NCBI GenBank assembly: GCA_965225945.1
Contig: CBDDBZ010000037.1
Location: 384,001-448,000, forward strand
Length of the DNA: 64,000 nt
Reading direction: 5' to 3'
DNA from: Alphaproteobacteria bacterium
Lineage (GTDB): Bacteria > Pseudomonadota > Alphaproteobacteria > GCA-2731375
The translations under genes and the position numbers were made by a program. Under the pieces are notes generated by a model. The model had not been told where the DNA came from. It was given only the letters and a program-made list of their open reading frames with translations, and ran no database searches. How positions within the stretch are numbered: position 1 is the first letter of the stretch; each line of letters opens with the position of its first letter. Below, piece after piece: positions 43,666-64,000 of this stretch.

Positions 43666-43915
43666 ACTCTGAAAGGGTGATAGGTTCGGATGCTTCCGTG
43701 CTACAACGAGTGGTCAAAAACTATCATTCACAATAGGTTACCGCGTTTGAGAAAGCCTGCTTAGGGCTTGCATTTGCGTCACGGATGGACTCTCATACAC
43801 TGGCATTGCACACCGTTTGGTATCTGGGTGTTCACGGAATTTCCAGCGGCCGGACGGCGGCGGCGGAATCCGGGCGGCGGTCCGTTCGGTCACGGGGGGA
43901 ATGGGAGAGCGGCGC

Positions 43916-44788
43916 ATGCCTCGAAAGAGCACTCTCAAGCTGAGCAGGCGCGTGGTCGAGGCGCTCGCGGTCGAAAGCGGCGACCGGGTGTTCTACGACC
44001 GCGACCTCACCGGGTTCGGTGTGCGGGTCCATGCCAGCGGGCGCAAGGTCTATGTGGTCCACGCGCGGGCGCCGGGTGGGGCGCTGAAGCGCGCCGCGAT
44101 CGGCCGGAAGGTCGATATCACCGTCGAGGATGCGCGGCGTGTGGCCGCGGAGGTCATCGACCGGCTGAAGAAGGGCGAGGAGGCGTTTCCGGAGCCGGCC
44201 GCGCCCGAGCCGACCGTGGCCGACCTGGCGGAGCGCTATGTCGAGGCGCATCTGGAGGTGAACTGCCGGCCGGGGACGGTCGAGACCTTCGGGCGAATCC
44301 TCCGGCTCTACATTCTGCCCGAGTTCGGCCACATGCCGCTCTCGGCGGTCGAGCGGGGCCACGTCGCGGCGCTGCATCACAAGATGCGCGACAAGCCCTA
44401 CCAGGCGAACCAGACGCGGGACGTGCTGGCGAAGATGTTCAAGCTCGCGGCGGCGTGGGGGATGACGCCGCCCAGGCGCAATCCGGCGCTGTCGATTCGC
44501 AGATATAAAGAGTATCGCCGCGAGCGGTTCCTGTCTGCGGACGAGTACCGGCGGCTGGCGCGGGTGCTGAACGAGGCGGAAGCCGACGGGTCGGTGTTCC
44601 CGACGGCGATCCCGGCGATTCTCCTGCTGATCCTGACCGGCTGCCGCAAGAACGAGATCGTCACGCTCAGGTGGGACGACATCGACCGCACCGCGGGCGA
44701 GCTGCTGCTGCGCGACGGTAAGACAGGCGTTAATTTCCTTCCCCGATGCCAGTCGACGTCCATTCAGTGCCAAACGATGCCTAACTGA
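43916..44788 (+). pseudogene. Tyrosine integrase truncated after the KTG motif (about 44727)
   Basis: DRDLTGFGVRV..TGCRKNE..DGKTG, then unrelated sequence; lacks HxxR and the catalytic Tyr. Confidence 0.88.
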
Positions 44789-44948
44789 CCGTATCGTTTA
44801 GGTTTTTTGTCCCGCCGTCGTTCCCGACCCCTTGAATTGATGCCACACCTACCCTAAGCTACCCCCACGGATTGATGCCGCACGTTTGCGGCTTGATTAC
44901 ACGCTCCGGTCCCTCAGCTCGGGTCCGGGCTTCGCGTCGGGGATCGCC

Positions 44949-46133
44949 ATGCCGAAGAGAAGCACCCTCCGCCTCACCACCCGCAGCGTCGCCGCCCTGC
45001 CGGTCACCGGCAAGGACGCCGTCTACTGGGACCGCGATCTCGCCGGCTTCGGCGTCCGCGTCCAGCGCAACGGACGCAAGGTCTACGTCGTCCAGTCCCG
45101 CGGACCCGCCGGCCTCCACCGGGTGACGCTCGGACCCTGCGCGGGGGTGGCGATCGACAAGAGGCGCCGCGAGGCGGCCACCATCATCGACCGCATCAAG
45201 CGCGGCCTGGATCCGGTTCCGCCGGAGCCCGAGCCCGAACCCACCGTGGCCGATCTCGCCGCGCGGTGCATGCGCGCCTATGTGAAGGTCCATTGCAAGC
45301 CGAAGACCGAGAAGCTCTACCGCACCGCCATCGACCGGCACATCGTTCCGGCGCTCGGAACCATGGCGGTGAAGGACGTCCGCTCGAAGGATGTCATCGC
45401 GCTCCATGACCGCCTCCGCAACACCCCGTCGATGGCCAACCACGTCGTCGCGATGCTGTCGAAGATGTTCTCGCTGGCCGAGACCTGGGACGTGGTGCCC
45501 CGGGGCCGCAATCCCTGCAAGGCGGTGAGCCACTACCGCGAGCAGCCCCGGGAACGGTTCCTGACCCCCGAGGAGTACCGGAGCGTCGGCGCGGCGCTCA
45601 GGGAAGCGGAAGCCGGGGGCTGGATGTGGCGGCCGGCGATCGCGGCGATCCGGCTGCTCATGCTGACCGGCTGCCGCAAGTCCGAAATCCTCACCCTGCG
45701 CTGGGACGACGTGGACCGCACGGCGGGCGAGTTCCGGCTCCGCGACGGCAAGCGGGGCCCGCGCATGGTGCCGCTGACGACGCCGGCTCTGAAGGTGCTC
45801 GACGGCATCGAACGGGTCGAGGGCAATCCCTGGGTCATCCGGAGCAAGAAGCCCGGCGCCTGCCTGCCGGATCTCACCTACTACTGGAACCGCATCCAGG
45901 TGCATGCCGGACTGGACGGCGTGCGCGTCCATGATCTCCGACACTCCCACGCCTCCCGGGCGCTCGCGCTCGGCGAGAGCCTGACCATGATCGGCCGGAT
46001 TCTCGGGCACTCCAAGGTCGGCACCACCGCCCGCTACGCCCATCTCGTGCACGACGCCGAGAAGGCCGCCGCCGCACGCACCGGCGACAGCATCGGCGCC
46101 CACCTGGCGCCGCAAGACGCCGAGGCGGCGTAG
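44949..46133 (+). CDS. Tyrosine integrase
   Basis: WDRDLAGFGVRV, TGCRKSE, HDLRH, LGH, RYAH. Confidence 0.95.
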   Translation: MPKRSTLRLTTRSVAALPVTGKDAVYWDRDLAGFGVRVQRNGRKVYVVQSRGPAGLHRVTLGPCAGVAIDKRRREAATIIDRIKRGLDPVPPEPEPEPTVADLAARCMRAYVKVHCKPKTEKLYRTAIDRHIVPALGTMAVKDVRSKDVIALHDRLRNTPSMANHVVAMLSKMFSLAETWDVVPRGRNPCKAVSHYREQPRERFLTPEEYRSVGAALREAEAGGWMWRPAIAAIRLLMLTGCRKSEILTLRWDDVDRTAGEFRLRDGKRGPRMVPLTTPALKVLDGIERVEGNPWVIRSKKPGACLPDLTYYWNRIQVHAGLDGVRVHDLRHSHASRALALGESLTMIGRILGHSKVGTTARYAHLVHDAEKAAAARTGDSIGAHLAPQDAEAA

Positions 46134-46147
46134 GGGAGGCGCGGGCG

Positions 46148-47344
46148 ATGGCGGTACTGCAATACAAGACGCTCTCCAACCGCACGGTGGCGGCGCTGAG
46201 CGTCGAACGCGACACGGTGTTCTGGGATCGCGAGCTCACCGGCTTCGGGGTCAGGGTCTATCCCAGCGGCGGCAAAGTCTTCGTCGCCCAGACGCGCGGT
46301 CCGGACGGGCCGAACAAGCCGAACAAGCCAAGGCGGATAACGGTCGGCCGCCACCCGGTGCTCAGCGCCGAGCAGGCGCGCCAGCGGGCCGCGCTCATCA
46401 TCGCGCGGGTCAAGGCCGGGGAGGACCCGGTTCCCCTTCCGCTCCCGGCGAAGTACGCAGGCGGCCCGACGGTGACCGACCTGGCCAACCGCTATCTCCA
46501 AGAGCATGTCGCTGTCCGCTGCAAGCCGAAGACGCAGCGGACGGCCCGCAGCGTCGTCAACCGCCACATCGTGCCGGCGCTCGGCAAACTGCCGATCGCC
46601 GCGGTCGAACGCCGACACGTCATGGCGCTGCACGAGAGCCTGTGCGAGACCCCCGCAATGGCGAATATGGCGGTCGAGACCCTGCGCCACATGTACGCGC
46701 TCGCCAGGGGCTGGGACATGGCGCCGGAGGACTGCGACGATCCCTGCGAGTTCATCCCGATGAACCCCAAGCGGAAACGGGAGCGGTTCCTGACCGACAC
46801 GGAGTTCACCCGCCTCGGGCACGTGCTCGACGAAGTCTCGGGCAAGGGCAGCCGGATATCCGCCGGCGCGATCGCGACGATCCGCCTGCTGATGCTGACG
46901 GGCTGCCGCCGAAACGAAATCCTGACTCTGCGCTGGGAGCACGTCGATCTCGACAAGGCCGAGATGCGCATCGTCGACGGAAAGACGGGCGCCCGCACGG
47001 TCCACTTGTCGCCGTCGGCGGTCCGCGTCCTCAAGACCCTGCCGCGCAAGCCCGGCAGTCTCTGGGTCATTCCGGGAGCCAAGCCGGGCACGCACATGAC
47101 CGACATCGACGGGGCGTGGGCGTCGATCCGCGTGCGGGCCGGGCTCCACGACGTGCGCATCCATGACATCCGGCACAGCTTCGCCTCGCGGGCGCTCGCA
47201 CTCGGTGAGGGCCTGCCGATCATCGGCCGGCTGCTCGGTCACCGCCGGGTCGAGACGACCGCGCGCTATGCGCACCTTGCGCGCGACTCGATCAGGGAAT
47301 CCGCCGAGCGAATCGCCGTCAGCATCGTCGCCGACATCCTCTAG
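46148..47344 (+). CDS. Tyrosine integrase
   Basis: WDRELTGFGVRV, TGCRRNE, KTG, HDIRH, LGH, RYAH; starts 14 nt after the previous integrase. Confidence 0.95.
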   Translation: MAVLQYKTLSNRTVAALSVERDTVFWDRELTGFGVRVYPSGGKVFVAQTRGPDGPNKPNKPRRITVGRHPVLSAEQARQRAALIIARVKAGEDPVPLPLPAKYAGGPTVTDLANRYLQEHVAVRCKPKTQRTARSVVNRHIVPALGKLPIAAVERRHVMALHESLCETPAMANMAVETLRHMYALARGWDMAPEDCDDPCEFIPMNPKRKRERFLTDTEFTRLGHVLDEVSGKGSRISAGAIATIRLLMLTGCRRNEILTLRWEHVDLDKAEMRIVDGKTGARTVHLSPSAVRVLKTLPRKPGSLWVIPGAKPGTHMTDIDGAWASIRVRAGLHDVRIHDIRHSFASRALALGEGLPIIGRLLGHRRVETTARYAHLARDSIRESAERIAVSIVADIL

Positions 47345-47949: not shown

Positions 47950-48440
47950 TCACCGATCGAGACGGACACGGAGCCGCCTAGCACGCTCACGGAAGGCAGC
48001 CTCGCCACCCTCGAGGATATCGCAGACAGCCTTGCGAATTGCTGCGTTTTCCAACCCACCTGCCGCGTAGCTGATCGGCGGAAGGCCACCTGACGGATGC
48101 GGGCCTGCTTCGGCCACGATGATCTGATCCGCGTCGGTGTTGATGACGAGGTTCGCGTTGTGCGTCACCATTATCACCTGGCGCTTCGCCTTGGCCGCAA
48201 TGAAGAGCGCGACCAGCTCGTCGAAGACAGACTTCGGATCGAGGTTCTCTTCGGGCTGGTCGATGATCAACGGTCGATCGTCTGAATCGTCGAGCGCAAG
48301 GTAGAGCAGCAGCAGCACGATACCGCGCGTTCCGGGCGAGAGCTTGCGGATGTCAACGCCGTCATATGAAATCTCGTACCGCACGGTGATGTGGTCGGTG
48401 CCGAAAAGCCAGTGCGCGAACTGTTTCGACCAGGCTCGGA
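47950..48440 (-). pseudogene. TrlF/Ppl-like ABC-type ATPase, C-terminal fragment
   Basis: LSPGTRG, PLIIDQPEENLD, VTHNANLVINTDAD; the upstream part is replaced by IS21 sequence. Confidence 0.78.
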
Positions 48441-48444
48441 ATAC

Positions 48445-49762
48445 CGGCATCATCGACCAGATCCTGGAAGATGACAAAAGCGAGTAGAAGAAGCAGCGCC
48501 ATACCTGCAAACGCATTTTCGAATGGTTGCGCGACGAGCATGGTTATAGCGGTGGCATCACCATCGTGACGGACTATGTCCGGGCCCGGAAGCGCCTGGG
48601 CAAAGAGGTTTTTGTGCCGCTGGCCCATGACCCCGGCCATGCCCAGGTCGACTTCGGCGAAGCCTGGGCGACCATAGCCGGTGTTAGACGGAAGGTTCAC
48701 TATTTTGCCTTGGACCTGCCCCACAGCGATGCCTGTTTTGTCAAAGCCTATCCGGCGGAAACCACGGAGGCTTTCTGCGACGGCCATGTCGCCGCCTTTG
48801 GCTTCTTTAGCGGCATACCCCTCTCGATCCTCTATGACAACACGACACTGGCTGTCGCCAAGATCAAGAAAGACGGCAAGCGGGTCCGCACGAAGACCTT
48901 TACCAAGCTACAGTCACATTACTTGTTCCAGGACAAGTTTGCCCGCCCCGCCAAGGGCAATGAAAAAGGTAAGGTGGAAGGGCTGATCGGCTATGTGCGG
49001 CGCAATTACCTTGTCCCCATTCCTCGTTTTGATAGTTTTGATGCCCTGAATGCCTGGCTTGAGGAACAATGCTTGAAGCGCCAGGGCGATCAATTGCGCG
49101 GCCATGGGGAAACCATCGAAGCGCGTCTGATGCGGGATCTGGATACCCTGATGGCGCTGCCCGCCACGCCTTATGATGCCTGCGAACAGGTCAGCACATC
49201 GGCCAATTCCATCTCGATGGTGCGCTATCGCAACAATGACTACTCGGTGCCGGTGGCCTATGCCCATCATGAGGTTCGGGTGCGGGGCTATGTTCACCAG
49301 GTCGTCATCGGCTGTGGCGCGGAGATTATCGCCCGCCACCCCCGTTCTTATGAGAAAGGGGACATGGTCTTTGACCCGATGCACTTTCTGCCGCTGCTTG
49401 AGCAAAAGGTCGGTGCACTGGATCAGGCGGCGCCATTGAAAGGCTGGGACCTGGGTGTGGAATTTGCCACCCTGCACCGGCTTCTGGAAGCTCGCATGGG
49501 CAAGGCCGGCAAACGTGAATATGTCCAGGTTCTGCGCCTGATGGAAAACTTCGAGATGGGGGACGTGCATGGCGCCGTCAGGCAGGCACTGAACATGGGC
49601 GCCATTGGTTACGATGCGGTCAAGCATCTACTGCTCTGCCGCATTCAAAAGCGACCGCCAAGGCTGGACCTGGATATTTATCCCTACCTACCCAGGGCCA
49701 GTGTCGAGACAACAAAGCCAGCGGCCTACATGAACCTCCTGGCGGAGGAGGCAGCCCCATGA
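48445..49762 (+). pseudogene. istA: istA, 5'-truncated with an in-frame TAG near 48485
   Basis: GIIDQILEDDKSE*KKQRHT..AQVDFGEA..YDN..EKGKVEG. Confidence 0.85.
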
Positions 49763-50746: not shown

Positions 50747-51914
50747 ATACCACCGAGCGGAATGCCTGACTCACGTTGGGGATTCCCAAGCGGTCCGATC
50801 TCTGACTCAATGTGGTGAACCAATGAGGTTCGCCATGGCAGCGCCTATCGACTTACGGAACGATTTTGACAGCGTCTCACTGCGGCGCCTCGCGAAGAGG
50901 ACCAGGGACGCGACCCAGAGCCGTCGTCTGCTGGCGTTGGCCGAGGTCTACGATGGTGGCAGCAGGACGGATGCGTCGCGGATCGGCGGCGTCGGTCTGC
51001 AGATCATTCGCGACTGGGTGCTGCGCTTCAACGCCCGCGGACCGGACGGGCTGGTCGATGGGAAGTCACCGGGCGCACCCTCGAAGCTCAACGCCGATCA
51101 CCGCCGCGCACTGGCGGAGGTTGTTGAGGCCGGCCCGGTCCCGGCGGTCGACGGCGTCGTGCGCTGGCGGCGCAAGGACCTGGCGCGGTGGCTCTTGGAG
51201 ACGTTCGCCATCTCGCTCGACGAGACCACGGTCGGGCGCGAGTTGAAGGCGCTCGGCTTCGCCAAGATCTCGGCGCGGCCGCGCCACTACGCGCAAAACG
51301 AGCTGGCCGTCGAGGCTTTTAAAAAAAAACTTCCCCGCCGAACTGGCGAAGATCCGGGCGAGGCTCCCGAAAGGCGTCGAGATAGAGCTGTGGTGGCAAG
51401 ATGAAGCCCGCATCGGCCAGAAGAATAAGCTCACACGCCGATGGGCCAGACGTGGCACGCGCCCGCGGGCGCCCCGCGACCAGCGCACCGAATGGGCCTA
51501 TATCTTCGGCGCGATCTGTCCCGCGAAGGGGAAAGGCGCCGGGCTGGTCATGCCCTGGTGCGACACCGACGCCATGGCGGCGCACCTCATCGAGATCAGT
51601 GCCGCCGTCGATCCCGGCGCCCATGCGGTGCTGATCGTCGATCAGGCCGGTTGGCACTTGACGCCCAAGCTGGCGATCCCCGACAACATCACCGTCCTGG
51701 CGCTGCCGCCACGATCGCCCGAGTTGAACCCGGTGGAGAATGTCTGGCAATTCATGCGCGACAACTGGTTGTCGAACCGGATCTTCAAATCCTACGAAGA
51801 CATCGTCGCGCTGTGCTGCCAAGCCTGGAACAACCTCATCGACCAACCATGGAAGATCATGTCCCTCGGCATGCGCAAATGGGCGCATGGGTTCTGATCA
51901 ATGACCGTTGGTAT
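50747..51914 (+). mobile_element. IS630-family element, transposase split at an A9 tract
   Basis: HTH orfA 50823-51404; DDE part WQDEARIG..DQAGWH..ELNPVE ending 51897; ends ATACCA...TGGTAT. Confidence 0.88.
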
Positions 51915-51915
51915 A

Positions 51916-52151
51916 ACTCCAAGCGTTGTGATTTTGTCATCGTTGACGCAACCGGTTACCCCGTCTTGGCCATCGAATACCAGGGAACCGGGCATTTCAC
52001 CCCGGATGCTTTTGAAAGGGATTACGTCAAACAACAAGCGCTTGAGAGCGCCGGCGTTCGCCTTGTTGAAGTGTTCGACAACTTTCGCTGGGATGACGTG
52101 CAGACGCAGCTCGAGACGGCGGTGGGGACGCAAAAGAAAATGTTTGCTTAG
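51916..52151 (+). pseudogene. DUF2726-like protein, C-terminal fragment
   Basis: SKRCDFVIVD..PVLAIEYQGTGH..RDYVK..ALESAGV. Confidence 0.7.
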
Positions 52152-52155
52152 CTTA

Positions 52156-53124
52156 GAGTCCGTCCGGAGACTTTATGTAGGATTACAGAGTTTTCGGAGC
52201 ATGAGTCGAATGGACGCGAGCTTGATGAAGGCGAGCGCGTTGCGGTTGAGGTTCTCCCAGTCCTTGGCCAGTCGGCGGCAGCGGTTGAGCCAGGCGATGG
52301 TGCGTTCGACCACCCAACGCCTGGGCTGGACGACGAAGCCCTTCACCCGATCGGATCGCTTGACGATCTCGGTCTCGAGATCGGGCAGGATGCCGGCCAG
52401 GGCGCGGTGAAAGACCGGCCCCTGATAGGCGCTGTCGGCGAACAATTTCCCGAGAAAGGGAAACAGACCGAACAAGGTCGCCAGCAGCGCGAGACCGCCG
52501 TCGCGATCCTGAACGTCGGCGGCGGTGACGATGCCGTGCAGCAGCAAGCCTTGCGTATCGACCAGAACATGCCGCTTCTTGCCCTTGATCAGCTTGCCGG
52601 CATCGAAGCCGTGGCTGTCGATGCGAGCCCCCCTTTTTCAGCGCTTTTCACACTCTGACTGTCGATGATGCAGGCCGTGGGGCTGGCTTCGCGCGCGGCT
52701 TTCTCGCGGCACTTGAGGTAGAGCGCATGATGGATGCGATCCAGCGTGCCGTCCCAGTTCCACAGGCCGAGGTAATCATGCACGGTGCTTCTGGGCGGCA
52801 AATCCTTGGGCAGCGCGCGCCACTGGCAGCCGGTGCTCAGAATGTACATCACGCCGTTGATCACCTCGCGGATAGCGACGCGCCGTTTGCCGCCGCCGGG
52901 CTTGCCCGGCGGGATCAGCGGCTCGATATGCGCCCATTCCGCATCGGTCAGGTCGCTCGGATAACGCAGTTTGTCGCGGTTGTAGCGCGGGCGGTTGTCG
53001 GCAGTCCACATGGGGCACCTCAAGAGCAAATTCACCACCCCAGAGAATCACAGCTGATTCAGCTCTTCAAGAGGGGCCGCCGGATAACCGATTCATCCGA
53101 CTCATAAAGTCCCCGGACGGACAC
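52156..53124 (-). mobile_element. IS5-family element (IS1031-like), copy 1; two-frame transposase
   Basis: IR G(A/T)GTCCGTCCGG(A/G)GACTTTATG, TTA flanks; RYPSDLTDAEW, IIDSQS, A5G6 shift site, RWVVERT. Confidence 0.93.
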
Positions 53125-53189
53125 TTAACCTCGTGTCCACGAAACCGGCAGCTGGCCAAAATGGAATATTACTCATCAAGATGAGGGCG

Positions 53190-54371
53190 TTAGGCTGTTT
53201 CCCTCAGACCAGCAGACTCAATACGTAAAAGGGCATCAGAAACAAGCTCTACAGTACATGCAATCTCCTTATCGGTTGTGTACCAACCCACGCTGAGTCT
53301 GATCGAAGATTGCGCATCTTCATCGGACAGGCCAATTGCGCGTAGGACATGAGACGCCTCCGGAATGCCGGAAGTGCAGGCGGACCCAGTCGAAACAGCC
53401 AAATCAGGTTGGAGCACTCCCAATAATTCTTCGGCGCGGAATCCCGGAAATTGCATACTCAAATTGCCAGGATGCCTTGCTGATATGGACGGGCCGTTCA
53501 GCTTGGCTTCCGGACCCAAGGCGGATAGGCCATCCCAAAGCTTCAAGGATTTCGTGCGAAGAGATTCACGCTGTTGCGGCTGTTGCAGCAATAGTTCGCA
53601 GGCGGCTCCCATTCCCACGCATAGCGGAACGGGCAGAGTTCCCGATCGAAGCCCTTGTTGTTGACCACCTCCATGTATGAGGGGCGTAATTTCACTTTGC
53701 AGCCGCCGCGTCACATAGAGACACCCGATCCCTTTAGGGCCGTAGATCTTATGTCCCGACAGACTGATCATGTCTGCATAGCTGGAAGCGCGGGACATGT
53801 CGCAAGCCAACGGCATCTGAGCGGCGTCCAAATGCACAAGCACACCAAAGCGCGAAGCCAAGGCATAGATAGCCTCGATATCCTGAATCGTACCGATCTC
53901 GCTATTCACTGCACCGATAGACAACAGAAGCACCCGTTCAGAAAGTATTTCTTCAAGATGACCGAGGTCGATCCGGCCATCCTCGCCTACCTTGCATGCC
54001 GTTAATTCGGCCCCATACTCATCCGTCATCGCAGCGCAGGTCGCAAGCGCACTTTTATGCTCAATATTGGTCGTTATAATTCCATTTCGTTCATTTTTAC
54101 TCAATAAACGACGAAGACCAAGTATAGCGAGATTATTCGCCTCAGTTGCACCCGAGGTATATATGATCTCATCATCGTCGCAGACTATGAGCGCCGCTAT
54201 TCTTGCGGATGCTGAATTCACGGCGGCGGCTGCCGCCCATCCAGATGCGTGATCCGATGAGTGGGGATTGGCGAACGATTCGGTAAGAAACGGCAGCATT
54301 TCCTCGAAAACGGCCTCATCGAGCGGTGTCGATGCCTGATGATCGAGGTAGATTGTGTTTCCAGTTCGCAT
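53190..54371 (-). CDS. sspA: Cysteine desulfurase (IscS/DndA/SspA-like)
   Basis: YLDHQASTP, SGATEANN, SGHK (PLP Lys), RSGT, GSACTS (catalytic Cys); divergent from DUF4007. Confidence 0.9.
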   Translation of the reverse strand: MRTGNTIYLDHQASTPLDEAVFEEMLPFLTESFANPHSSDHASGWAAAAAVNSASARIAALIVCDDDEIIYTSGATEANNLAILGLRRLLSKNERNGIITTNIEHKSALATCAAMTDEYGAELTACKVGEDGRIDLGHLEEILSERVLLLSIGAVNSEIGTIQDIEAIYALASRFGVLVHLDAAQMPLACDMSRASSYADMISLSGHKIYGPKGIGCLYVTRRLQSEITPLIHGGGQQQGLRSGTLPVPLCVGMGAACELLLQQPQQRESLRTKSLKLWDGLSALGPEAKLNGPSISARHPGNLSMQFPGFRAEELLGVLQPDLAVSTGSACTSGIPEASHVLRAIGLSDEDAQSSIRLSVGWYTTDKEIACTVELVSDALLRIESAGLRETA

Positions 54372-54521
54372 TTAGTTTCAATATCTTATCGGTGAAAACG
54401 GTTGCTGAGCGCCACTTTCAAGGCATCGGTGCATCTTCTGGGGGATCGCCCCAGCTTTCCGTTTGACTATAGCATGTTCGAGGAGGTAAAGTCGAGCTGG
54501 AGGAACCATCCAGGAGAAACC

Positions 54522-55478
54522 ATGTCAAGAGGGCCGCTATTTCAAAAAAACTACAAACCGCTATTCTCTGGCCATGAGACATTTCCGTTGCGTTATGGCT
54601 GGCTGAAGAAAGTATATGATGCGGTGACCGAAAGCGGTGATGGGATCGCGAGCAAGTCTATCTTCTCAGATGACAACGCCATTGCCCGTTTTGGCGTTGG
54701 CAAGAATATGGTTGCCTCCATGCGATATTGGGGCGCAGCATGTGGCATTATTGGCAACGTTTCCCCTAACCGACTCTCTGTGAAGCCTCTTGGCCACAAA
54801 CTATTCGGACAAGATGGTCTTGACCCTTACATGGAATCACCTGCAACGCTTTGGATTTTGCATTGGTGGCTTTGCGGGCGAGAAGACAGAACGACCTGGT
54901 ATTGGGCTTTCAACCATTTTTCGCACCTAACATTCGAGCGGGAAACACTTGTAAAAGCTTTGTTATCGCTTGCAGAAGATCGTGAATGGCCACGCGTATC
55001 CCCGGCCACCGTAAAGAGGGATGTTGAGTGCTTTGTCCGCACCTATGCCGCCAGAATGGCGACCGGGCAAAGCTCTCATGAAGATGCACTTGAATCGCCC
55101 CTGACTGAACTCGGTCTGCTAAGGGCAACTGGAAAAAAGGATGGATTCCGTTTTGTTCGTGGCGCCAAATCCACACTAGGCGAAGGGGTCTTCGCTTACG
55201 CGCTCATTGATTTCTGGGAAAGTTACTCACATTCGAAGACGCTTTCATTCGAGGCGATCGCTCATGAGCCAGGTTCCCCCGGACGGGTTTTTTCGCTTGA
55301 TGAAAGCGACCTTGCCGAGCGCCTAGCTGACATCGGCGACGCCACTGACGGGCTTTTGCGATGGTCTGAAACGGCTGGCCTAAAACAAGTCATTCGATCC
55401 TCAGAGCTTAACGTCGAAGCCGCCCTTGATTTGGTCGATGCAGACTTTCGCGTTCGCGACCGCAGGAAGGTGGCCTGA
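54522..55478 (+). CDS. sspB: DUF4007 protein (SspB-like)
   Basis: FSGHETFPLRYGWLKK, FGVGKNMV, DPYMES, SPLTELGL; AGGAG SD at 54512. Confidence 0.88.
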   Translation: MSRGPLFQKNYKPLFSGHETFPLRYGWLKKVYDAVTESGDGIASKSIFSDDNAIARFGVGKNMVASMRYWGAACGIIGNVSPNRLSVKPLGHKLFGQDGLDPYMESPATLWILHWWLCGREDRTTWYWAFNHFSHLTFERETLVKALLSLAEDREWPRVSPATVKRDVECFVRTYAARMATGQSSHEDALESPLTELGLLRATGKKDGFRFVRGAKSTLGEGVFAYALIDFWESYSHSKTLSFEAIAHEPGSPGRVFSLDESDLAERLADIGDATDGLLRWSETAGLKQVIRSSELNVEAALDLVDADFRVRDRRKVA

Positions 55479-58400
55479 TGAGTCTGAGTGAAAAGGTATA
55501 CATAGCCCCAAGGTTTCAGCGCGCAATACGAATAGATACCGACCTGAAACAACCGGAATCGCTGGAAGGCTTCATGTGCCCCCAATCATCCGCCGAAGTC
55601 TTGCTCGCGATGGCAAACCACGTGTCGGACACGAAGCAAGGCGCCTTTACATGGACAGGACCCTACGGCAGCGGCAAATCCAGCTTAGTTGTTGCACTAA
55701 GCGCGCTGCTCGGAAACAACAAGACTCTGCGCACGCTTGCCGTTTCATCGATTGGTGAGCCCGTCGCAAGCGATATCCGGTCCAAGCTTCAATGCGGAAA
55801 GAAGGGTTGGCAGACAATCGCGGCTGTCGGGCGGCGCGAGAATGCTTGCCACGTCATTGGAGAAGCCCTGATTGATTCCGGCATAGTGCCGGGCCGCCGG
55901 AAGAAACAATGGGACGACAAAGCTATCATCGAGGCATTGGTGAACACCGCAGGAGCAAAGGATCACGGGGGCGTCATCCTCTTTATCGACGAGATGGGAA
56001 AGCTGCTTGAAGGTGCCGCGCAGGGCGAAGGCGATGTGTATCTTTTCCAACAGCTTGCCGAGGCGGCATCACGTAGTGACGGCCGCTTGATTATCGTCGG
56101 CGTCCTGCATCAGGCGTTCGAAGAATATGCCAACCGGCTTTCCAGAGATTTGCGCGACGAATGGTCGAAGGTTCAAGGCCGTTTTGTTGACTTGGTTGTT
56201 AATGCCGCCGGTGAAGAACAGATAGAACTAATCTCGCGCGCCCTATCCGGCGAAGCGCCGGGTAAAGGCCATGTGAAACTAGCCGGAAAGGTTGCCAAGG
56301 AAATCCAATCGCGCAAGGCCGGTATTTCAAGCTATCTCGATCAGGCCCTTGCTGATTGCTGGCCGCTCCACCCCGTTGTCGCGTCGCTTCTTGGGCCGAT
56401 TTCGAGGCGAAGATTCGGGCAGAACCAACGCAGCATATTCGGCTTCCTGAATTCAGCAGAGCCGCACGGTTTTCAAGATTTCCTGCGAACAGCCGAAGAG
56501 CGCGACCTCTACTCCCCGAACCTGCTTTGGGAGTATCTACAACTCAATCTCGAACCCTCGATTCTCGCTTCTCCCGACGGTCACCGATGGTCGATAGCCG
56601 TAGAGGCAATCGAGCGGTGCGAAGCAATGGGGGGGGATCAATCTCAAATCGAGCTTCTCAAAGTCATTTCACTGGTTGATCTATTCAAGGACCGGTCGGG
56701 CATGGTCGCGAGCGATGCGCTGTTGGCTGCTTCGTTCCCCTCGCTTTCCAAGGCCAAGTTGCGGTCGATGCTCGACCAGCTTACCGAATGGTCGCTGATA
56801 TCGTTCAGGAAGTTTCTTGGTGGCTACGCGGTTTACGCAGGAAGCGACTTCGACATAGAGGCTGCAACCGAACGAGCCCTCGGCCACATTGACGGAGTGG
56901 ATTTCGAGCAGCTGCGTGCCCTTGCAAGTCTTCAACCCGTCATGGCAAAGCGCCACTACCACGAAACAGGGGCGCTACGCTGGTTCGATGTCGAGATAGC
57001 GCCGCTTTCAGGCGCCTTGCAACATGCCGAGGAATTCGAACCGGGCGCGAGCACGATCGGCCTGTTTCTGCTCGAAATCCCGACACAAGGCGAATCCGAA
57101 GATGCAGCCAAGGACCTTTGCAAGCGAGCGGCACGATTATCCGGTCGTCACGATATAATCGTCGGGCTGTCTTCACGGTCCTGGTCAATCAATAACCTGT
57201 CCCGCGATTTGATTGCCCTGGAGCACGTGAGAAATGGCGACTCAGAACTGCGAGGGGACGCTGTAGCGAGGCGTGAGGTCAACGCCCGTATTGCCAGTTT
57301 GCAAGCGCAGCTAGAACAAGAGCTGCAACGCGCCTTCGACGGCGCACAATGGTTTCAAAAGCAGCATAGTCCCAAGCAGCTTATGCATGACGAGTTGAAT
57401 GGCCTTGCCTCAGATCTCGCCGACAAGCGGTATCCTTTGTCGCCGGTTCTGAATAACGAGCTGCTGAACCGGATAAAGCCGTCAAGTAATGCGATTGCCG
57501 GACAAAACGCACTGCTCAGAAAGATGGTGGACAATGAAGGCGAAGAGCGGCTCGGAATAGTCGGGTTCCCGGCCGAAGGCGGTATGTTCGAATCTGTTCT
57601 CGAAAGTTCAAACCTCTATGCGAACACCCCTGATGGATGGCGCTTCGTCGCTCCGGGTGAAGGATTGCCAGACAAGGCAGGTCTGCGCCCGCTTTGGGAT
57701 GCAACGGCGGAATATCTGCTCAAGCGGGAAGACCGATCAGTGACGCTTTCGGACGTTTATGATCTTTGGCGGTCGAAGCCATTCGGCATCAAGGACGGCA
57801 TGATGCCTGTCCTGGCGGTAGCGTTCATTCTGTCGAAGCGAAACGACGTTGCGCTTTACCGGCAAGGCGTGTTTCAGGCCCGCTTTACCGACCTTGATGT
57901 CGATTATCTGGCAAAAGACCCGAATGATATCCAGCTGCGGTGGATGAATTTGAGCGACCTCGCGCGAAGGCTTTTGTCCGGTCTTGCCAATATCGTTCGC
58001 GATCTGGATGAAACGAACAGCCTGCAAAATCTAGAGCCGATCGATGTGGGGCGCGGACTGATTTCGATTTACACGAGCCTTCCCCAATGGACGCAAAGAA
58101 CGATGAGATTATCCGCGAATGCCATCCGTATTCGCGACCTGTTCAAACGCGCCAGGGACCCGAACCAGTTCATCTTCAATGATCTTCCCCAGCTTGCCAG
58201 CAACAGCAGTGATTTGGAAAGCGAGGACGGTTTCCGCCGGATCGTGGGTAGCGTCCGGGACGCATTGGAAGAGATGGTCAAAGCTTATCCGCAAATGCTG
58301 CAACGCCTTGCAGAGCGCACGCTTGCAGAGCTTCAGGTTCCCAACAGCTCATCACAGGCCCTTAATGACCTAAGAGACCGCGCTAGTAATATTCGGGAGT

Positions 58401-58864
58401 TGGGGGGTGATTTCCGTCTCAATGCCTTTGTCAATCGCATATCGTCCTATCACGACGCAATTACAGAAATAGAAGGATTGGCGGGGCTTGCCGCCAATAA
58501 GCCGGCTAGGGACTGGATCGACGCCGATCTGGATACGGCCTCGATTGAACTCGCCGATCTCGCGCAACGGTTCAACAAGTCCGAAGCGTTTGCGCGCGTG
58601 AAGGGCCGTCCCGATAAGCGTCACGCAATGGCAGTGATTGTTGGCGTCGGAGGCATACCGGCCCCTATAGGCGATGAGTTTGATGTTAGCGATGCGGAAC
58701 TCGCAAATGTCGAAGCGCTAATCACCGATTTGCGAAAAGCGCTCCACAAGCAGCGAAACGCCAAGCGGTCGGTAGTACTAGCCGCACTGGCAGAAATTTC
58801 TGCCGAGGTCATGCGGAACGAAGATGCGGAGCAGGCCGACCGCAGCAAGGCGGTAGTACGATGA
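55478..58864 (+). CDS. sspC: Large P-loop ATPase (SspC-like)
   Basis: GPYGSGKS, FIDEMGK, EWSKVQGRF, WPLHP, QNQRSIFGFL, PFGIKDG; TGATG coupling to the upstream gene. Confidence 0.85.
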   Translation: MSLSEKVYIAPRFQRAIRIDTDLKQPESLEGFMCPQSSAEVLLAMANHVSDTKQGAFTWTGPYGSGKSSLVVALSALLGNNKTLRTLAVSSIGEPVASDIRSKLQCGKKGWQTIAAVGRRENACHVIGEALIDSGIVPGRRKKQWDDKAIIEALVNTAGAKDHGGVILFIDEMGKLLEGAAQGEGDVYLFQQLAEAASRSDGRLIIVGVLHQAFEEYANRLSRDLRDEWSKVQGRFVDLVVNAAGEEQIELISRALSGEAPGKGHVKLAGKVAKEIQSRKAGISSYLDQALADCWPLHPVVASLLGPISRRRFGQNQRSIFGFLNSAEPHGFQDFLRTAEERDLYSPNLLWEYLQLNLEPSILASPDGHRWSIAVEAIERCEAMGGDQSQIELLKVISLVDLFKDRSGMVASDALLAASFPSLSKAKLRSMLDQLTEWSLISFRKFLGGYAVYAGSDFDIEAATERALGHIDGVDFEQLRALASLQPVMAKRHYHETGALRWFDVEIAPLSGALQHAEEFEPGASTIGLFLLEIPTQGESEDAAKDLCKRAARLSGRHDIIVGLSSRSWSINNLSRDLIALEHVRNGDSELRGDAVARREVNARIASLQAQLEQELQRAFDGAQWFQKQHSPKQLMHDELNGLASDLADKRYPLSPVLNNELLNRIKPSSNAIAGQNALLRKMVDNEGEERLGIVGFPAEGGMFESVLESSNLYANTPDGWRFVAPGEGLPDKAGLRPLWDATAEYLLKREDRSVTLSDVYDLWRSKPFGIKDGMMPVLAVAFILSKRNDVALYRQGVFQARFTDLDVDYLAKDPNDIQLRWMNLSDLARRLLSGLANIVRDLDETNSLQNLEPIDVGRGLISIYTSLPQWTQRTMRLSANAIRIRDLFKRARDPNQFIFNDLPQLASNSSDLESEDGFRRIVGSVRDALEEMVKAYPQMLQRLAERTLAELQVPNSSSQALNDLRDRASNIRELGGDFRLNAFVNRISSYHDAITEIEGLAGLAANKPARDWIDADLDTASIELADLAQRFNKSEAFARVKGRPDKRHAMAVIVGVGGIPAPIGDEFDVSDAELANVEALITDLRKALHKQRNAKRSVVLAALAEISAEVMRNEDAEQADRSKAVVR

Positions 58865-59697
58865 CGACGCCTGAAAAACATGTGCTTGGTCTTTCCGGCG
58901 GACGGGATAGCGCTGCGCTCGCCGTATATATGCGTCACTACCATCCCGCACTCGATATAAATTACTTTTTCACGGACACAGGAAAGGAATTGCCCGAAGT
59001 CTACGAGTTCCTTGGCCGCCTCGAAGGTGTGCTTGGCAAGCCTATTCAAAGGCTAAATCCCGATCGTGACTTCGATTTCTGGCTGAAACAATACAATTCC
59101 TTTTTGCCGTCGGCACAAACACGTTGGTGCACCAGGCAGCTGAAACTTCGTCCTTTCGAGATCTGGATCAAGCCGATGCTTGCCGAAGGGACAAAGGTCT
59201 TTTCCTACGTTGCCATACGCAGTGACGAGGAATACCGCGAAGGCTATACGTCCAAGCATGAGAACCTCGTCGTGAGCCTGCCCTTTAAGGAAGCCGGAAT
59301 CGACAAAGCCGGGGTTCTCGAACTGCTGGAATCTTCGGGCCTTGGTCTTCCGAAATACTATAAATGGCGCACGCGAAGCGGGTGCACGTTTTGTTTTTTC
59401 CAACAAAAGATCGAGTGGGTCAGGCTGCGCGAGGAACACCCTGAATCCTTTGAAGAGGCGAAACGGTACGAAAAAACTGCAATGGACGGCGGGTCACCGT
59501 TCACCTGGAGCCAAGGAGAGTCGCTTGAGCAACTAGAGCAGCCGGAGCGAACCGAGCAAATCAAAGCGGATCACGCGGAACGGCTTCGAAGGACGAAATC
59601 AAAGGCCTGCACGAATCCACTCAGACCCGACGATGAACCGCTGGACATTGACGATCTGTATGGTCAGACAAAGGCATGTCTCGCCTGCCACAAATGA
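58861..59697 (+). CDS. sspD: PAPS-reductase-family protein (SspD-like)
   Basis: PP-loop SGGRDS, DTGKE, RWCT..LK..P, SGCTFCF, C-terminal CLACH; ATGA coupling. Confidence 0.88.
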   Translation: MTTPEKHVLGLSGGRDSAALAVYMRHYHPALDINYFFTDTGKELPEVYEFLGRLEGVLGKPIQRLNPDRDFDFWLKQYNSFLPSAQTRWCTRQLKLRPFEIWIKPMLAEGTKVFSYVAIRSDEEYREGYTSKHENLVVSLPFKEAGIDKAGVLELLESSGLGLPKYYKWRTRSGCTFCFFQQKIEWVRLREEHPESFEEAKRYEKTAMDGGSPFTWSQGESLEQLEQPERTEQIKADHAERLRRTKSKACTNPLRPDDEPLDIDDLYGQTKACLACHK

Positions 59698-59737
59698 TGA
59701 TCCGGCTTGCTTTGAAATTGTCCCATAGGAGATATTC

Positions 59738-60259
59738 TTGAATTTTGGGGAAGTAGAAGATTTTGCTCAAGGTGCTGCGGATGCAATAGCCAGATTCACC
59801 GTTCAATTCACGCTGTCAACAGACCAGTTGGATGACGATAATTACCGGCTCGACGGTCTGGAATGGCATTCAATCTGTTACGGCGAGGACGAAATCGAAA
59901 TCGTGCCGAACGACCGGCGCGGTATATATGCATTCGCAATATGTAAAGAAAGCGAAGTGCTGCCACCGCACTGCTACGTCCTTTACATCGGCATCGCCGG
60001 GAGAAAGTCGAACCGGTCACTTCGCGAACGCTACAGAGACTACCTCAATGAAAAAAAGGTTCTGAAACGTGATCGCATAGCCTTCATGATTGGAACCTGG
60101 CATCACGTGTTACGTTTTTACTACGCGCCGGTTGACCAGAATATTACGTCAGATCAACTTGAAGGACTTGAAAGGCAGCTGAACAGCACTCTTCTTCCGC
60201 CGTTCTCACAGGGGGATCTGGAAGCCGAAATCAAGAAACAACGGAGGGCGTTCAGATGA
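59738..60259 (+). CDS. GIY-YIG-like nuclease
   Basis: GIYAF..LYIG..SLRERY..LE; AGGAG SD 6 nt before a TTG start. Confidence 0.7.
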   Translation: MNFGEVEDFAQGAADAIARFTVQFTLSTDQLDDDNYRLDGLEWHSICYGEDEIEIVPNDRRGIYAFAICKESEVLPPHCYVLYIGIAGRKSNRSLRERYRDYLNEKKVLKRDRIAFMIGTWHHVLRFYYAPVDQNITSDQLEGLERQLNSTLLPPFSQGDLEAEIKKQRRAFR

Positions 60260-61515
60260 CAAAATCCAAGACCAAAGAAATCGTCCTCCCGGCTCTTCGA
60301 GGCGTCATGGGCACGTGGGTGTACTACACATGTCTCATGAATATGGAAGAGGTCGCGAGGCGCGTCAGTTACGCCGACGAGATACACAAGAACAAGAAGC
60401 TCTCAGATATGATTCAGCGCAGCCTAAAAGCGACGAGAAGCGCGCAGATCGCAGAATATATCGAGACACAGGACGAACGTTTCTTCAATTCGCTCGTGAT
60501 TGCGACATATGGCGGGCAGCCCAACTGGAGCGCCATCGACAGCCTGAAAAGCAATAGCAAAAACAATATCACCGAAAGACTCTCAGAAGAGACTTTAAAC
60601 TCCGTCGGCTTTTTATCGCTCAGTGGAAACGAAAAGCTCTTTGCGCTGGACGGTCAGCATCGGCTGTCAGGTATCAAGAAGGCAATAAAGGACGGGCTGG
60701 AACAAGATCCCCCCGACGATTTGTCTGTCATTTTTGTTGCCCACAAAACTTCGCTCAAAGGCTTGGAGCGCACGCGGCGGTTATTCACCACACTCAACAA
60801 GACGGCAAAACCCGTCTCCAAGGGCGACATAATTGCGCTTGATGAGGACGATGTAATGGCGATTTGCGTCAGGCGCCTGATTGAGGAGACCAAGCTTTTT
60901 GAGGGAGAGCGAGTGGCGTTCGTTGCGAACAACAATCTTCCGACATCAAACACAAAAAGCCTCACCACGATCGGCAACCTTTATGACGTGGTTACGACCT
61001 TGTTCACCCGCGTTGAGACGGATCTTAAAACAGGCAAAGCCGAACTGCAAAGAGCCCGGCCCGACGACAAGACCCTCGGGGCATACTTCGATTTGGCTAA
61101 GCGGTATTTTGAGCTAATGGCGGCGAATTTCGGTGCCCTTTCCGAATTTTTCGCGGCAGAGGAAACTACCGGAGTTGTTAAAAAGTATCGTGGAAATCAC
61201 GGGGGCAGCGCGCTGTTCCGGCCCATAGGGCTGGCCATATTCGCGGATATTGTGGCCCACTTAAGCAAAAAATATTCTTTGAAGAAATCAATCGAAATTG
61301 CTGGAAAATTGCCAACGACACTTACTGATCTGCCTTTTGAGGGGCTTATGTGGGATTCGGCAAGTCAGCGCATCGACAACACAAACAGGGTTACGTTGCG
61401 CGAAGTCCTTTTATACATGCTGGACAATTCAAAATGGACGGACGCGACTGTATTAAAGCGTTATCAGCGGAGTATAGGAGACGAAGAAGCGGAACTGCCG
61501 GACAAAGTCGTTTGA
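60256..61515 (+). CDS. DGQHR-domain protein (DndB-like)
   Basis: IQR, RFFNSLV, LDGQHRL, RRLFTTLNKTAKPV; ATGA coupling to the GIY-YIG gene. Confidence 0.9.
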   Translation: MTKSKTKEIVLPALRGVMGTWVYYTCLMNMEEVARRVSYADEIHKNKKLSDMIQRSLKATRSAQIAEYIETQDERFFNSLVIATYGGQPNWSAIDSLKSNSKNNITERLSEETLNSVGFLSLSGNEKLFALDGQHRLSGIKKAIKDGLEQDPPDDLSVIFVAHKTSLKGLERTRRLFTTLNKTAKPVSKGDIIALDEDDVMAICVRRLIEETKLFEGERVAFVANNNLPTSNTKSLTTIGNLYDVVTTLFTRVETDLKTGKAELQRARPDDKTLGAYFDLAKRYFELMAANFGALSEFFAAEETTGVVKKYRGNHGGSALFRPIGLAIFADIVAHLSKKYSLKKSIEIAGKLPTTLTDLPFEGLMWDSASQRIDNTNRVTLREVLLYMLDNSKWTDATVLKRYQRSIGDEEAELPDKVV

Positions 61516-61538
61516 TCGTTGACGCGAGAAAGCGCGCC

Positions 61539-64000
61539 CTAAATCATGTGTTCCAAGTCGTATTCCCTGAGTGTCGGAGCAAGCACTTCATAAGCTTCAG
61601 CTCTATTTTCCGAAAGAGATGAAAACTCGGCCACTCGGCCTAATTCGGACTTGATCAATCTCTTCGCGTAGTCAGAATCGGTTTCGTACCCCTGCGGCAA
61701 AACGACGACAAAGTCGTGTGTCGTCGCCATTTCTTTTCCGGGCGAGCGCCGTAGAATTCTTCCCCGGCGCTGAACGAATTGGCGCGGATCACGAGAGCTC
61801 GCGAGAATATACGCCGTGCTGCACGCGGGTACGTCAATACCTTCGTCAAGGCAACGGATCGCGACCATGGCATCAATGATGCTCAGCCTGAAATTCTCCA
61901 GAATTGTGTCCCGTTCCTTGCGTGTCTCCCGAGAGGTAAATCGAGAGACATCCCAGCTGCCCCGGTGGAGAAGTGAACTCACCGCCTCGACCTGTCGCTG
62001 TCCATGATCGGCATTTTCGGGCGCGGAATCCGGCCCGGCGTCCTCATCGGTCTCAACAGTGCCGTCGCCGCAATAGAACAATGTGTGCGGACACCGAGCG
62101 GCCCCTTCTAGAACCTCTTCGAGCGCACTCATCTTGTTGGCGGCAGAACCGATTAGCCGCGCGCGCCGCATCAGGAGTCCTGTTAGTTGGGGACTTGTGC
62201 CGGATGACGAAACACCCTTCCGCCTCGCCATGATCCTGCCGATCTGCTCTGACAAGGCGACAAACTCATCGGCTTCCGCCGCAGTCAACTCAACCAACTT
62301 CGGATAGTAAAAATAGGGAGTGAGGACCTTATCCTCTATCGCTTGTTTCAGCGTATATTTCGATACGATATCGCCGTAGAAACCGGCCAAGCGCTCATTG
62401 CGCTCCTCGTCCAGATAATGTTCGGGCGTTGCCGAAAGGCCGATCCTATAGCGCGCGTGTTCGGGCAAGAAACCCTCATAGGCTTTCGATGTGTGGTGGT
62501 GACATTCATCTCCAATCCATAACAGCCGATTGCCTTTTATCTGCTTGAGGCATTTCTGGAATTCGGGGCTTTTTAGCGTCCTGTTCACGACGACGATCGC
62601 CGCGAATTTCCGGCTTCCCATCACCAGCTCATGGACAACACTCCTGAGTTTTTCCAGCCAGTTTGCCCGTGAAACGTAGCACCGGACCGGATAGATGTTG
62701 AATGAGGAAAGGATATCGACCCATTGATCGGCGAGGTTCTGATACGGCACAGCAATGACGCAGGTCAGGCCGTCAATGCGTTCTGACAATTTTACGACGG
62801 CATGAATGGCAGTAATGGTTTTGCCGGCGCCGGTGGCTAGATCGAACGTTCCCTGAAAATCGCCCTTAGAGTCCGTCCGGAGACTTTATGTAGGATTACA
62901 GAGTTTTCGGAGCATGAGTCGAATGGACGCGAGCTTGATGAAGGCGAGCGCGTTGCGGTTGAGGTTCTCCCAGTCCTTGGCCAGTCGGCGGCAGCGGTTG
63001 AGCCAGGCGATGGTGCGTTCGACCACCCAACGCCTGGGCTGGACGACGAAGCCCTTCACCCGATCGGATCGCTTGACGATCTCGGTCTCGAGATCGGGCA
63101 GGATGCCGGCCAGGGCGCGGTGAAAGACCGGCCCCTGATAGGCGCTGTCGGCGAACAATTTCCCGAGAAAGGGAAACAGACCGAACAAGGTCGCCAGCAG
63201 CGCGAGACCGCCGTCGCGATCCTGAACGTCGGCGGCGGTGACGATGCCGTGCAGCAGCAAGCCTTGCGTATCGACCAGAACATGCCGCTTCTTGCCCTTG
63301 ATCAGCTTGCCGGCATCGAAGCCGTGGCTGTCGATGCGAGCCCCCCTTTTTCAGCGCTTTTCACACTCTGACTGTCGATGATGCAGGCCGTGGGGCTGGC
63401 TTCGCGCGCGGCTTTCTCGCGGCACTTGAGGTAGAGCGCATGATGGATGCGATCCAGCGTGCCGTCCCAGTTCCACAGGCCGAGGTAATCATGCACGGTG
63501 CTTCTGGGCGGCAAATCCTTGGGCAGCGCGCGCCACTGGCAGCCGGTGCTCAGAATGTACATCACGCCGTTGATCACCTCGCGGATAGCGACGCGCCGTT
63601 TGCCGCCGCCGGGCTTGCCCGGCGGGATCAGCGGCTCGATATGCGCCCATTCCGCATCGGTCAGGTCGCTCGGATAACGCAGTTTGTCGCGGTTGTAGCG
63701 CGGGCGGTTGTCGGCAGTCCACATGGGGCACCTCAAGAGCAAATTCACCACCCCAGAGAATCACAGCTGATTCAGCTCTTCAAGAGGGGCCGCCGGATAA
63801 CCGATTCATCCGACTCATAAAGTCCCCGGACGGACACTTAGCCTTCCACGCATCAAGTGCAGCGATTTGATGTTCCTGCATCTTGAATGGTCGGCTATTG
63901 ATGGTCTTTGGCTCTTTCGGCTTCGAGGATGTCGTGCTTGTCGTGCCGTAGATCTTGTCTCGCAACCTTGCAGCGATGGCCGCTTCAATCTCGGGATCAG
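61539..64000 (-). pseudogene. SF2 DExH helicase (PT-restriction-associated type), interrupted by IS5; 5' end off the window
   Basis: Removing the IS restores HQIAALDAWKAKGDFQGTFDLATGAGKT; also DECH, SATP, CLDEGIDVP, QRRGR. Confidence 0.88.
62869..63837 (-). mobile_element. IS5-family element, copy 2
   Basis: 969 bp, apparently identical to 52156-53124 and in the same orientation; TTA flanks. Confidence 0.95.

Follow-up and report, generated by a model that had tools for sequence, protein, structure and literature searches.

The stretch of DNA analysed here, hereafter the window, comprises 64,000 nucleotides of contig CBDDBZ010000037.1 (positions 384,001 to 448,000, forward strand) in the alphaproteobacterial assembly GCA_965225945.1. 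From position 53190 onwards it carries a phosphorothioate (PT) modification locus. An intact SspABCD writer operon is followed by two overlapping genes, one for a probable GIY-YIG nuclease and one for a ParB-like protein with a DGQHR motif (together, the pair), and by a convergent PbeABCD-type restriction module split by insertion sequences (IS). Here we describe these genes and the association of the pair with PT writers across many phyla, and we weigh what the pair may do. The same contig was also read past position 64000; coordinates in that continuation (L001) plus 60000 give the extended coordinates used below. The open reading frames (ORFs) and elements of the locus are as follows.

52152-53131 (element about 52156-53123), minus strand: IS5-family copy 1, with CTTA duplication, 59 bp past the sspA stop
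53190-54371, minus strand: sspA, cysteine desulfurase, 393 amino acids (aa), divergent from sspB
54522-55478, plus strand: sspB (DUF4007), 318 aa from its likely start, the frame being open from a TTG at 54402
55478-58864, plus strand: sspC, ATPase, 1128 aa, overlapping sspB by 1 nt
58861-59697, plus strand: sspD, PAPS-reductase-like sulfur transferase, overlapping sspC by 4 nt
59738-60259, plus strand: ORF of 173 aa (ORF5), first gene of the pair, TTG start, 40 nt after sspD
60256-61515, plus strand: DGQHR protein (ORF6) of the ParB/DndB superfamily, 419 aa, second gene of the pair, motif at residues 132-136
61539-62868, minus strand: 3' part of pbeA (superfamily 2 (SF2) helicase; ORF 61539-62789, 416 aa), severed by IS copy 2
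62869-63836, minus strand: IS5-family copy 2, 968 bp, inside pbeA, with CTTA at 62865-62868 and 63837-63840
63837-64000 in the window and on to extended 64682, minus strand: 5' part of pbeA (PLD/HKD nuclease)
extended 64683-65156, minus strand: ORF of 157 aa at the place of pbeD, with no PADLOC or Pfam match
extended 65153-65473, minus strand: C-terminal remnant of pbeC (PADLOC 1.2e-28, profile 569-629)
extended 65499-66477 (block): IS5-family copy 3, inside pbeC, with CTAA duplication
extended 66449-68155, minus strand: N-terminal 568 aa of pbeC (PADLOC PDLC02750 1e-245, profile 1-559)
extended 68145-68318, minus strand: ORF of 57 aa, pbeB-like, conserved upstream of pbeC in the Devosia marina locus

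All four writer genes were present and full length when compared with those of the Devosia marina locus (L002). SspA matched the PADLOC models SspA (3.2e-124) and DndA (2.1e-120) as well as Pfam Aminotran_5 (8e-70), and aligned over its full length with the L002 homologue at 60% identity. SspB matched PADLOC (5.5e-111) and Pfam DUF4007 (6.5e-93). Residues 41-358 of its ORF matched residues 1-318 of the L002 protein (80% identity), and since the alignment begins only at residue 41, the ATG at 54522 is the probable start. SspC covered positions 1-1044 of the 1045 in the PADLOC SspC profile PDLC02780 (E=0, 1320 bits) and was 78% identical to its L002 counterpart over the full length, while SspD gave PADLOC and Pfam PAPS_reduct matches of 6.5e-136 and 1.2e-05, respectively, and 90% identity to L002. 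An intact SspABCD operon would write single-strand PT marks on DNA, which for this module lie at CCA motifs of the genome. No SspE, SspF, SspG or SspH was matched by PADLOC among the 7 ORFs of the window or the 12 ORFs beyond it; models for SspE, SspG and SspH are present in PADLOC and did match proteins of other loci or of the genome. The original prediction, made from the letters of the window, had described a divergent desulfurase, coupled genes for DUF4007, ATPase and PAPS reductase, an ORF 40 nt further on, a DGQHR gene and a convergent helicase, forming an SspABCD locus without sspE. The genes were found in this arrangement, and neither sspE nor sspFGH was matched in the locus, its continuation past position 64000 included.

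The start of the 173-aa ORF is preceded at 7 nt by GGAG. Searches of Pfam, PADLOC and NCBIfam gave no family match for its product, and a sequence search of PDB gave none either. The AlphaFold2 (AF2) model of the protein had a predicted local distance difference test score (pLDDT) of 80. Foldseek alone was weak with this model (UvrC, E 0.022), and the assignment to GIY-YIG needed VIA-align, which superposed it on T4 EndoII (Z 9.4, root-mean-square deviation (rmsd) 2.8 Å, 104 residues), on the GIY-YIG domain of UvrC (Z 9.3, rmsd 2.0 Å, 86 of 89 residues), on I-TevI (Z 7.8) and on R.Eco29kI (Z 6.7). Residues Y64, Y83, G85, R98 and E145 were invariant across 110 diverse relatives, and these we take to be the GIY-YIG catalytic set (Tyr, Tyr-x-Gly, Arg, Glu). 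Among the same 110 relatives, 12 matched Pfam GIY-YIG (PF01541) and 10 matched GIY_YIG_2, and a protein language-model atlas grouped the 173-aa protein with clusters labelled "GIY-YIG domain-containing". Relatives at E <= 0.001 formed 167 clusters at 90% identity; nearly all of the best 120 of these were 164-195 aa long, with three fragments of 142-150 aa. An exhaustive search gave 547 clusters at 50% identity, 307 of them scoring <= 1e-10. The GIY-YIG label given earlier to this ORF is thus borne out by fold and by relatives, but not by any Pfam, PADLOC or NCBIfam match of the protein itself. Judging by the model and the conserved residues, the protein is a divergent and probably active GIY-YIG nuclease.

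The DGQHR gene shares 4 nt (ATGA) with the 173-aa ORF. Its product matched the Pfam DndB family (8.1e-30, 104.5 bits against a cut-off of 29.1) and TIGR03187 DGQHR (1.8e-34), and residues D132, G133, Q134, H135 and R136 were invariant in 24 relatives. It is the sole DGQHR protein of the genome. The original prediction called it DndB-like; on the DndB equivalog model TIGR03233 it scored 58.9 bits against a cut-off of 328. Moreover, in locus L072 a homologue of the pair stands beside a canonical DndB (PADLOC 1.2e-151) and precedes a dndB-C-D-E-A operon, and therefore the pair is not merely DndB. By these sequence criteria, ORF6 is not a DndB orthologue. Its confidently modelled C-terminal helical half found no meaningful structural match with Foldseek or VIA-align (best Z 4.4), and profiles of both pair proteins found nothing relevant among PDB sequences.

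The convergent helicase ORF, whose stop lies 23 nt from that of the DGQHR gene, matched PADLOC PbeA PDLC02704 (3.1e-148) over positions 303-681 of 682, TIGR04095 (1.6e-126) and Helicase_C (1.9e-12). Its frame remains open up to 62870, that is, to the IS boundary. On the other side of the element, the ORF for the PLD half (L001:3780-4682, extended 63780-64682, minus strand) matched PbeA over positions 1-272 of the same profile (1.3e-82), and PLDc_2 (3.4e-08). Against the PbeA of L002 (723 aa) the two halves aligned from residue 1 to about 282 and from 281 to 723. By these matches, the helicase ORF is the 3' two-thirds of pbeA, in a PbeABCD-type module of order B-C-D-A that runs convergent to the pair. 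The earlier call of an SF2 helicase was therefore right as to the Helicase_C domain and wrong in treating a 3' fragment of an IS-cut pbeA as a whole gene. Of the small genes of the module, the 157-aa ORF had a counterpart in the corresponding position of L002, with 83% identity; by position and size, it is the putative pbeD, and the 57-aa ORF is the putative pbeB-like gene. We are highly confident of the SspABCD writer and of the IS-split Pbe module.

A block of 980 bp is present in three direct copies, two inside the window (52152-53131 and 62865-63844) and one past its end (65499-66477). It was assigned to the IS5 family because of the DUF4096 (1.5e-26) and DDE_Tnp_1 (1.7e-17) transposase ORFs that it encodes on the minus strand. 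Copies 1 and 2 are 99.9% identical, and a fourth copy, 99.3% identical, lies on another contig of the genome (C3:24116-25089). Matching 4-bp duplications flank each of the three copies separately (CTTA, CTTA and CTAA), and therefore the copies represent three separate insertions. For the same reason, an origin of the locus as a composite transposon, with copies 1 and 2 carrying the ssp genes, was rejected. The element appears to have been recently active in this strain. The pbeA gene is broken at L002 residue 281/282 or so and pbeC at about residue 559. An intact 13-kb block without any IS is present in three other genomes (L002, L038 and L074), and the window, once the IS are removed, is colinear with these on both sides of each element; the intact proteins of L002 are PbeA of 723 aa, PbeD of 157 aa and PbeC of 674 aa. 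The same IS has thus struck the restriction arm twice, and sspABCD and the pair are uninterrupted. With pbeA and pbeC split by two independent insertions, the restriction arm would be dead here and the writer and the pair whole.

A profile search with ORF6 gave 80 loci in as many species genomes, spread over many phyla, and these were surveyed with flanks of 10 kb. In all but one of the 80 loci (79), the gene immediately before that for ORF6, in the same orientation, encoded a homologue of the 173-aa protein; the exception (L061) was a short contig. The two ORFs overlapped or abutted in all 11 loci whose ORFs were listed. PT-writer genes occurred within 10 kb of the pair in 69/80 loci, and none in the remaining 11. 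Ssp genes were near the pair in 43 loci, with complete sspBCD in 39 and partial, contig-limited ssp in four; in 35/80 loci the pair came immediately after sspD in the same orientation. The co-occurrence with sspBCD elsewhere, on which the original prediction had made its case depend, is therefore real, as is the pair itself. DndC was near the pair in 13/80 loci. In a further 13/80, the pair adjoined a set of PDC-M33A/B/C candidate genes in which a PAPS-reductase (SspD-like) domain is fused to M33C (examples at L029:5014-9348, L041:4921-9292 and L047:11683-16973); a third type of PT writer may be encoded by this set. When five of the writer-less loci were tested genome-wide, DndC over the curated cut-off was found elsewhere in four, and neither SspD nor DndC in one.

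The gene set that faces the pair varied. It was a helicase with a MzaB-like ATPase (GHKL) and a third gene in 12 loci, SspFGH in 7, a PbeA-like protein in 13 (three of them close, with at least 78% identity) and a protein of about 810 aa in 6. PADLOC, run on a subset of 17 loci, found SspG and/or SspH in 5 and the helicase cassette in 7. In Roseobacter litoralis plasmid pROLI83, RefSeq annotation gives sspABCD, a "hypothetical protein" and a "DGQHR domain-containing protein", then a convergent set of helicase, ATP-binding and PLD genes. Writer and pair thus form a core that stays constant from locus to locus, with interchangeable restriction arms. A tree of ORF6 was built from the window and 78 of the 80 loci, two being dropped for short or interrupted matches. 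The class of writer changed 8 times on this tree against 21-25 times in the ten label shuffles listed, a result that shows only clustering by writer with several switches, as related sequences share labels. The protein of about 810 aa, which has no PADLOC match, lies directly after the pair in six Ssp loci (L007:11282-13735, L016:11662-14094, L031:11436-13871, and also L020, L024 and L060) and is a further candidate partner module. A literature search found no paper naming or testing the pair, with supplements and the preprint bioRxiv 10.1101/2024.10.26.620412 (sspBCD with GIY-YIG) outside its coverage. An unnamed "DGQHR domain protein" has been tied to PT systems by phylogenetic profiling (PMC3226654).

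We tentatively favour, by analogy with SspE and DndI, the reading that the pair is a two-subunit PT-linked nuclease. We infer its activities and sensing mechanism as follows: by means of an NTPase switch, the ParB-like DGQHR subunit would recognise DNA that bears PT marks, and nicking of DNA would fall to the GIY-YIG subunit. The pair stands in the position of sspE, its nuclease active site is conserved, and it coexists with a true DndB, all of which support this reading. A wider form of this reading, on which we are more guarded, holds that the pair may be a portable reader-effector for PT-DNA, a split and GIY-YIG-armed analogue of SspE and DndI that serves at least three unrelated writers (Ssp, Dnd and PDC-M33-type). 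Several points weigh against the two-subunit nuclease. The writer and the pair are constant and a separate, varying restriction module is usually also present, a pattern that fits an accessory of the modification side at least as well as an effector. ORF6 matches the Pfam family of DndB and not DUF262. The AF2 model of ORF6 is too unreliable in the ParB-like half (pLDDT <50 for most of residues 1-195) for a PT-binding patch to be read from it. Longer, fused GIY-YIG-DGQHR forms were not found among the relatives of the 173-aa protein, which is weak evidence. A passage of PMC10853773 describes DndB as an ATP-dependent negative regulator, and according to part of the text of PMC8092258 canonical Ssp systems function without the pair.

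The same observations bear on a role for the pair on the modification side, the main rival, which we consider rather unlikely. Here the DGQHR protein would act like DndB, as a repressor or limiter of PT, or like DpdB, with the GIY-YIG protein assisting, for example by nicking, and without any restriction. DpdB is an ATPase that helps its writer. The constant core with varying restriction partners, the same-strand position behind sspD in 35 loci, the DndB family match, the regulator described for DndB and the clustering of writer classes on the ORF6 tree, which suggests co-adaptation with the writer, all speak for such a role. However, a regulator has no obvious need for GIY-YIG catalytic residues that are invariant in 110 relatives, a canonical DndB is already present alongside the pair in L072, and the DndB score of ORF6 is far under the cut-off; that characterised Ssp writers work without the pair tells against this role too. 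A further reading, improbable in our view, makes the pair a suicide effector held in reserve, or else a selfish module of the addiction type, that rides at the edges of PT islands and fires on failure of the system, independently of PT sensing. In passages of PMC10853773, Aravind and co-workers proposed a back-up effector role for the URI (GIY-YIG) nucleases that border Dnd systems, and possible depletion of nucleotides by DndB-like ParB proteins. The 11 loci with no writer within 10 kb, and the one of five such genomes with no SspD or DndC match anywhere, would fit this proposal, but a writer was near the pair in 69 loci, four of the five tested exceptions had DndC elsewhere, and in Ssp loci the pair has the writer on one side and the restriction module on the other, which places it within the island and not at the edge. 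The original prediction had grouped the GIY-YIG, DGQHR and helicase genes as one atypical downstream module in a hybrid Ssp/Dnd architecture, which would make them a new three-gene effector. They do adjoin one another, a mere 23 nt lying between the convergent stops of the DGQHR and helicase genes, but the helicase is half of a pbeA that belongs to a separate, already described four-gene module on the other strand and past the window end, and a close PbeA is found in only three of the 80 loci, the pair elsewhere facing other modules or none; we consider this module very improbable.

The block from 53 kb onwards is, we think with moderate confidence, a horizontally acquired island of about 13 kb in three parts, namely the writer, the pair and the Pbe module. 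As noted in the original prediction, it is lower in guanine plus cytosine (GC) than its surroundings, with 0.49-0.56 over 53-62.5 kb against 0.64-0.68 in the 39 contigs of the genome (6.27 Mb, 66% GC overall). A search of 2 genomes from the same genus and 16 from the same family found no ORF6, and DndC was absent from the genome in a genome-wide search. Recent acquisition is indicated by the low GC, by the lack of ORF6 in these relatives and by the lack of DndC in the genome. No tRNA gene that could mark an integration site was present in 30-64 kb. Three tandem integrase genes upstream, with partial direct repeats between them, are probably the integration end of stacked islands. IS1595, IS630 and IS21 elements and a Mu-type transposase also lie upstream of the island, and an IS630-type transposase lies downstream. 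Other genes in the neighbourhood and in the genome are as follows.

41316-41717, minus strand: PIN-domain toxin gene
43817-44788, 44886-46133 and 46148-47344, plus strand: three tandem tyrosine integrase genes, upstream of the island
47950-48516, minus strand: AbiEii-type AAA_21 fragment
51441-52151, plus strand: DUF2726 ORF, possibly shortened by IS copy 1, with which its end coincides exactly
L001:10307-11260 (extended 70307-71260), plus strand: ThsB-like TIR protein (PADLOC ThsB 2e-123)
L001:13966-14859, plus strand: IrrE-type Peptidase_M78 and UvrD-type helicase N-terminus in one ORF, cut by the contig end
L083:4012-6138, minus strand: DUF262 (GmrSD_N) protein, 708 aa, the sole one in the genome, near the end of contig C36

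The best PADLOC match of the 708-aa DUF262 protein was 'Orf5' (4.6e-145); HEC-06 also matched, and its SspE matches were weak and N-terminal only. It is a solitary DndI/GmrSD-like enzyme, and it might read the Ssp marks in trans.

Conserved, unnamed and found after what may be three types of PT writer, the pair of nuclease and ParB-like protein is a concrete candidate to fill a missing role, be it that of reader, effector or regulator. For most sspBCD loci, no restriction partner is known: a section of PMC8092258 puts their number at 2,211 of 2,678, and sspE was missing in 5,518 of 5,530 Ssp loci of Acinetobacter baumannii (PMC12421847). If the reader-effector reading is true, the pair would account for part of the many sspBCD loci that have neither sspE nor sspFGH. 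In addition, the locus couples an Ssp writer with a Pbe-type module, which had earlier been described with Dnd writers or methylases, and displays a selective inactivation of the restriction arm by IS with the writer and the pair spared.

SspABCD-SspE was reportedly described by Xiong et al. in 2020. It is also treated in passages of PMC8092258 and PMC11662687. The locus resembles that system in its writer, whose genes sspA, sspB (DUF4007), sspC and sspD keep both order and coupling, and in having a ParB-superfamily protein and a nuclease after sspD, the usual place of sspE. Unlike it, the locus has no DUF262-DUF1524 protein; its ParB-like part is of the DGQHR/DndB family, its nuclease is GIY-YIG and not HNH, and the two are separate polypeptides. 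In one passage of PMC10853773, sspE is treated as the equivalent of DndB.

PbeABCD was described, in a portion of PMC6459918, as a four-gene antiviral module dependent on PT, all four genes of which are required, with PbeB of 66 aa and PbeD of 152 aa. Passages of PMC10853773 describe PbeA anew as a fusion of HKD nuclease and SF2 helicase, PbeB as a small fast-evolving protein, PbeC as a CxC-type ABC ATPase and PbeD as a cognate of DndE. As in DndCDEA-PbeABCD (PMC6459918), strong PADLOC matches to pbeA (PLD and SF2 helicase) and pbeC (ABC ATPase) are present here; by position and size, the ORFs of 157 aa and 57 aa are the putative pbeD and pbeB (152 aa and 66 aa in the type system). In contrast to it, the writer here is Ssp and not Dnd, the order is B-C-D-A, and pbeA and pbeC are split by IS and non-functional.

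According to part of the text of PMC11662687, SspE and DndI each join a ParB-like NTPase (DUF262) to an HNH nickase in one chain and sense PT, to which the NTPase responds. Excerpts of PMC4619093 state that GmrS and GmrD may be fused or separate and that DUF262 resembles the DGQHR domain. As far as these two sources go, the DndI of IscS-DndBCDE-DndI (PMC11662687) and GmrS/GmrD (PMC4619093) are like the proposed pair in uniting a ParB-like NTPase and a nuclease to read a DNA modification, and GmrS/GmrD also in that they can be two separate proteins. Theirs, however, are HNH (DUF1524) with DUF262, whereas here they are GIY-YIG with the DGQHR/DndB family; ORF6 has no sequence-level match to any solved structure. 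Lastly, ORF6 is like DndB in its Pfam DndB family match and its DGQHR motif, but differs from it in being a protein of 419 aa below the equivalog cut-off, whose confidently modelled C-terminal helices matched no structure (best Z 4.4), in having a GIY-YIG gene as its neighbour in 79 of the 80 loci and in coexisting with a true DndB in L072.

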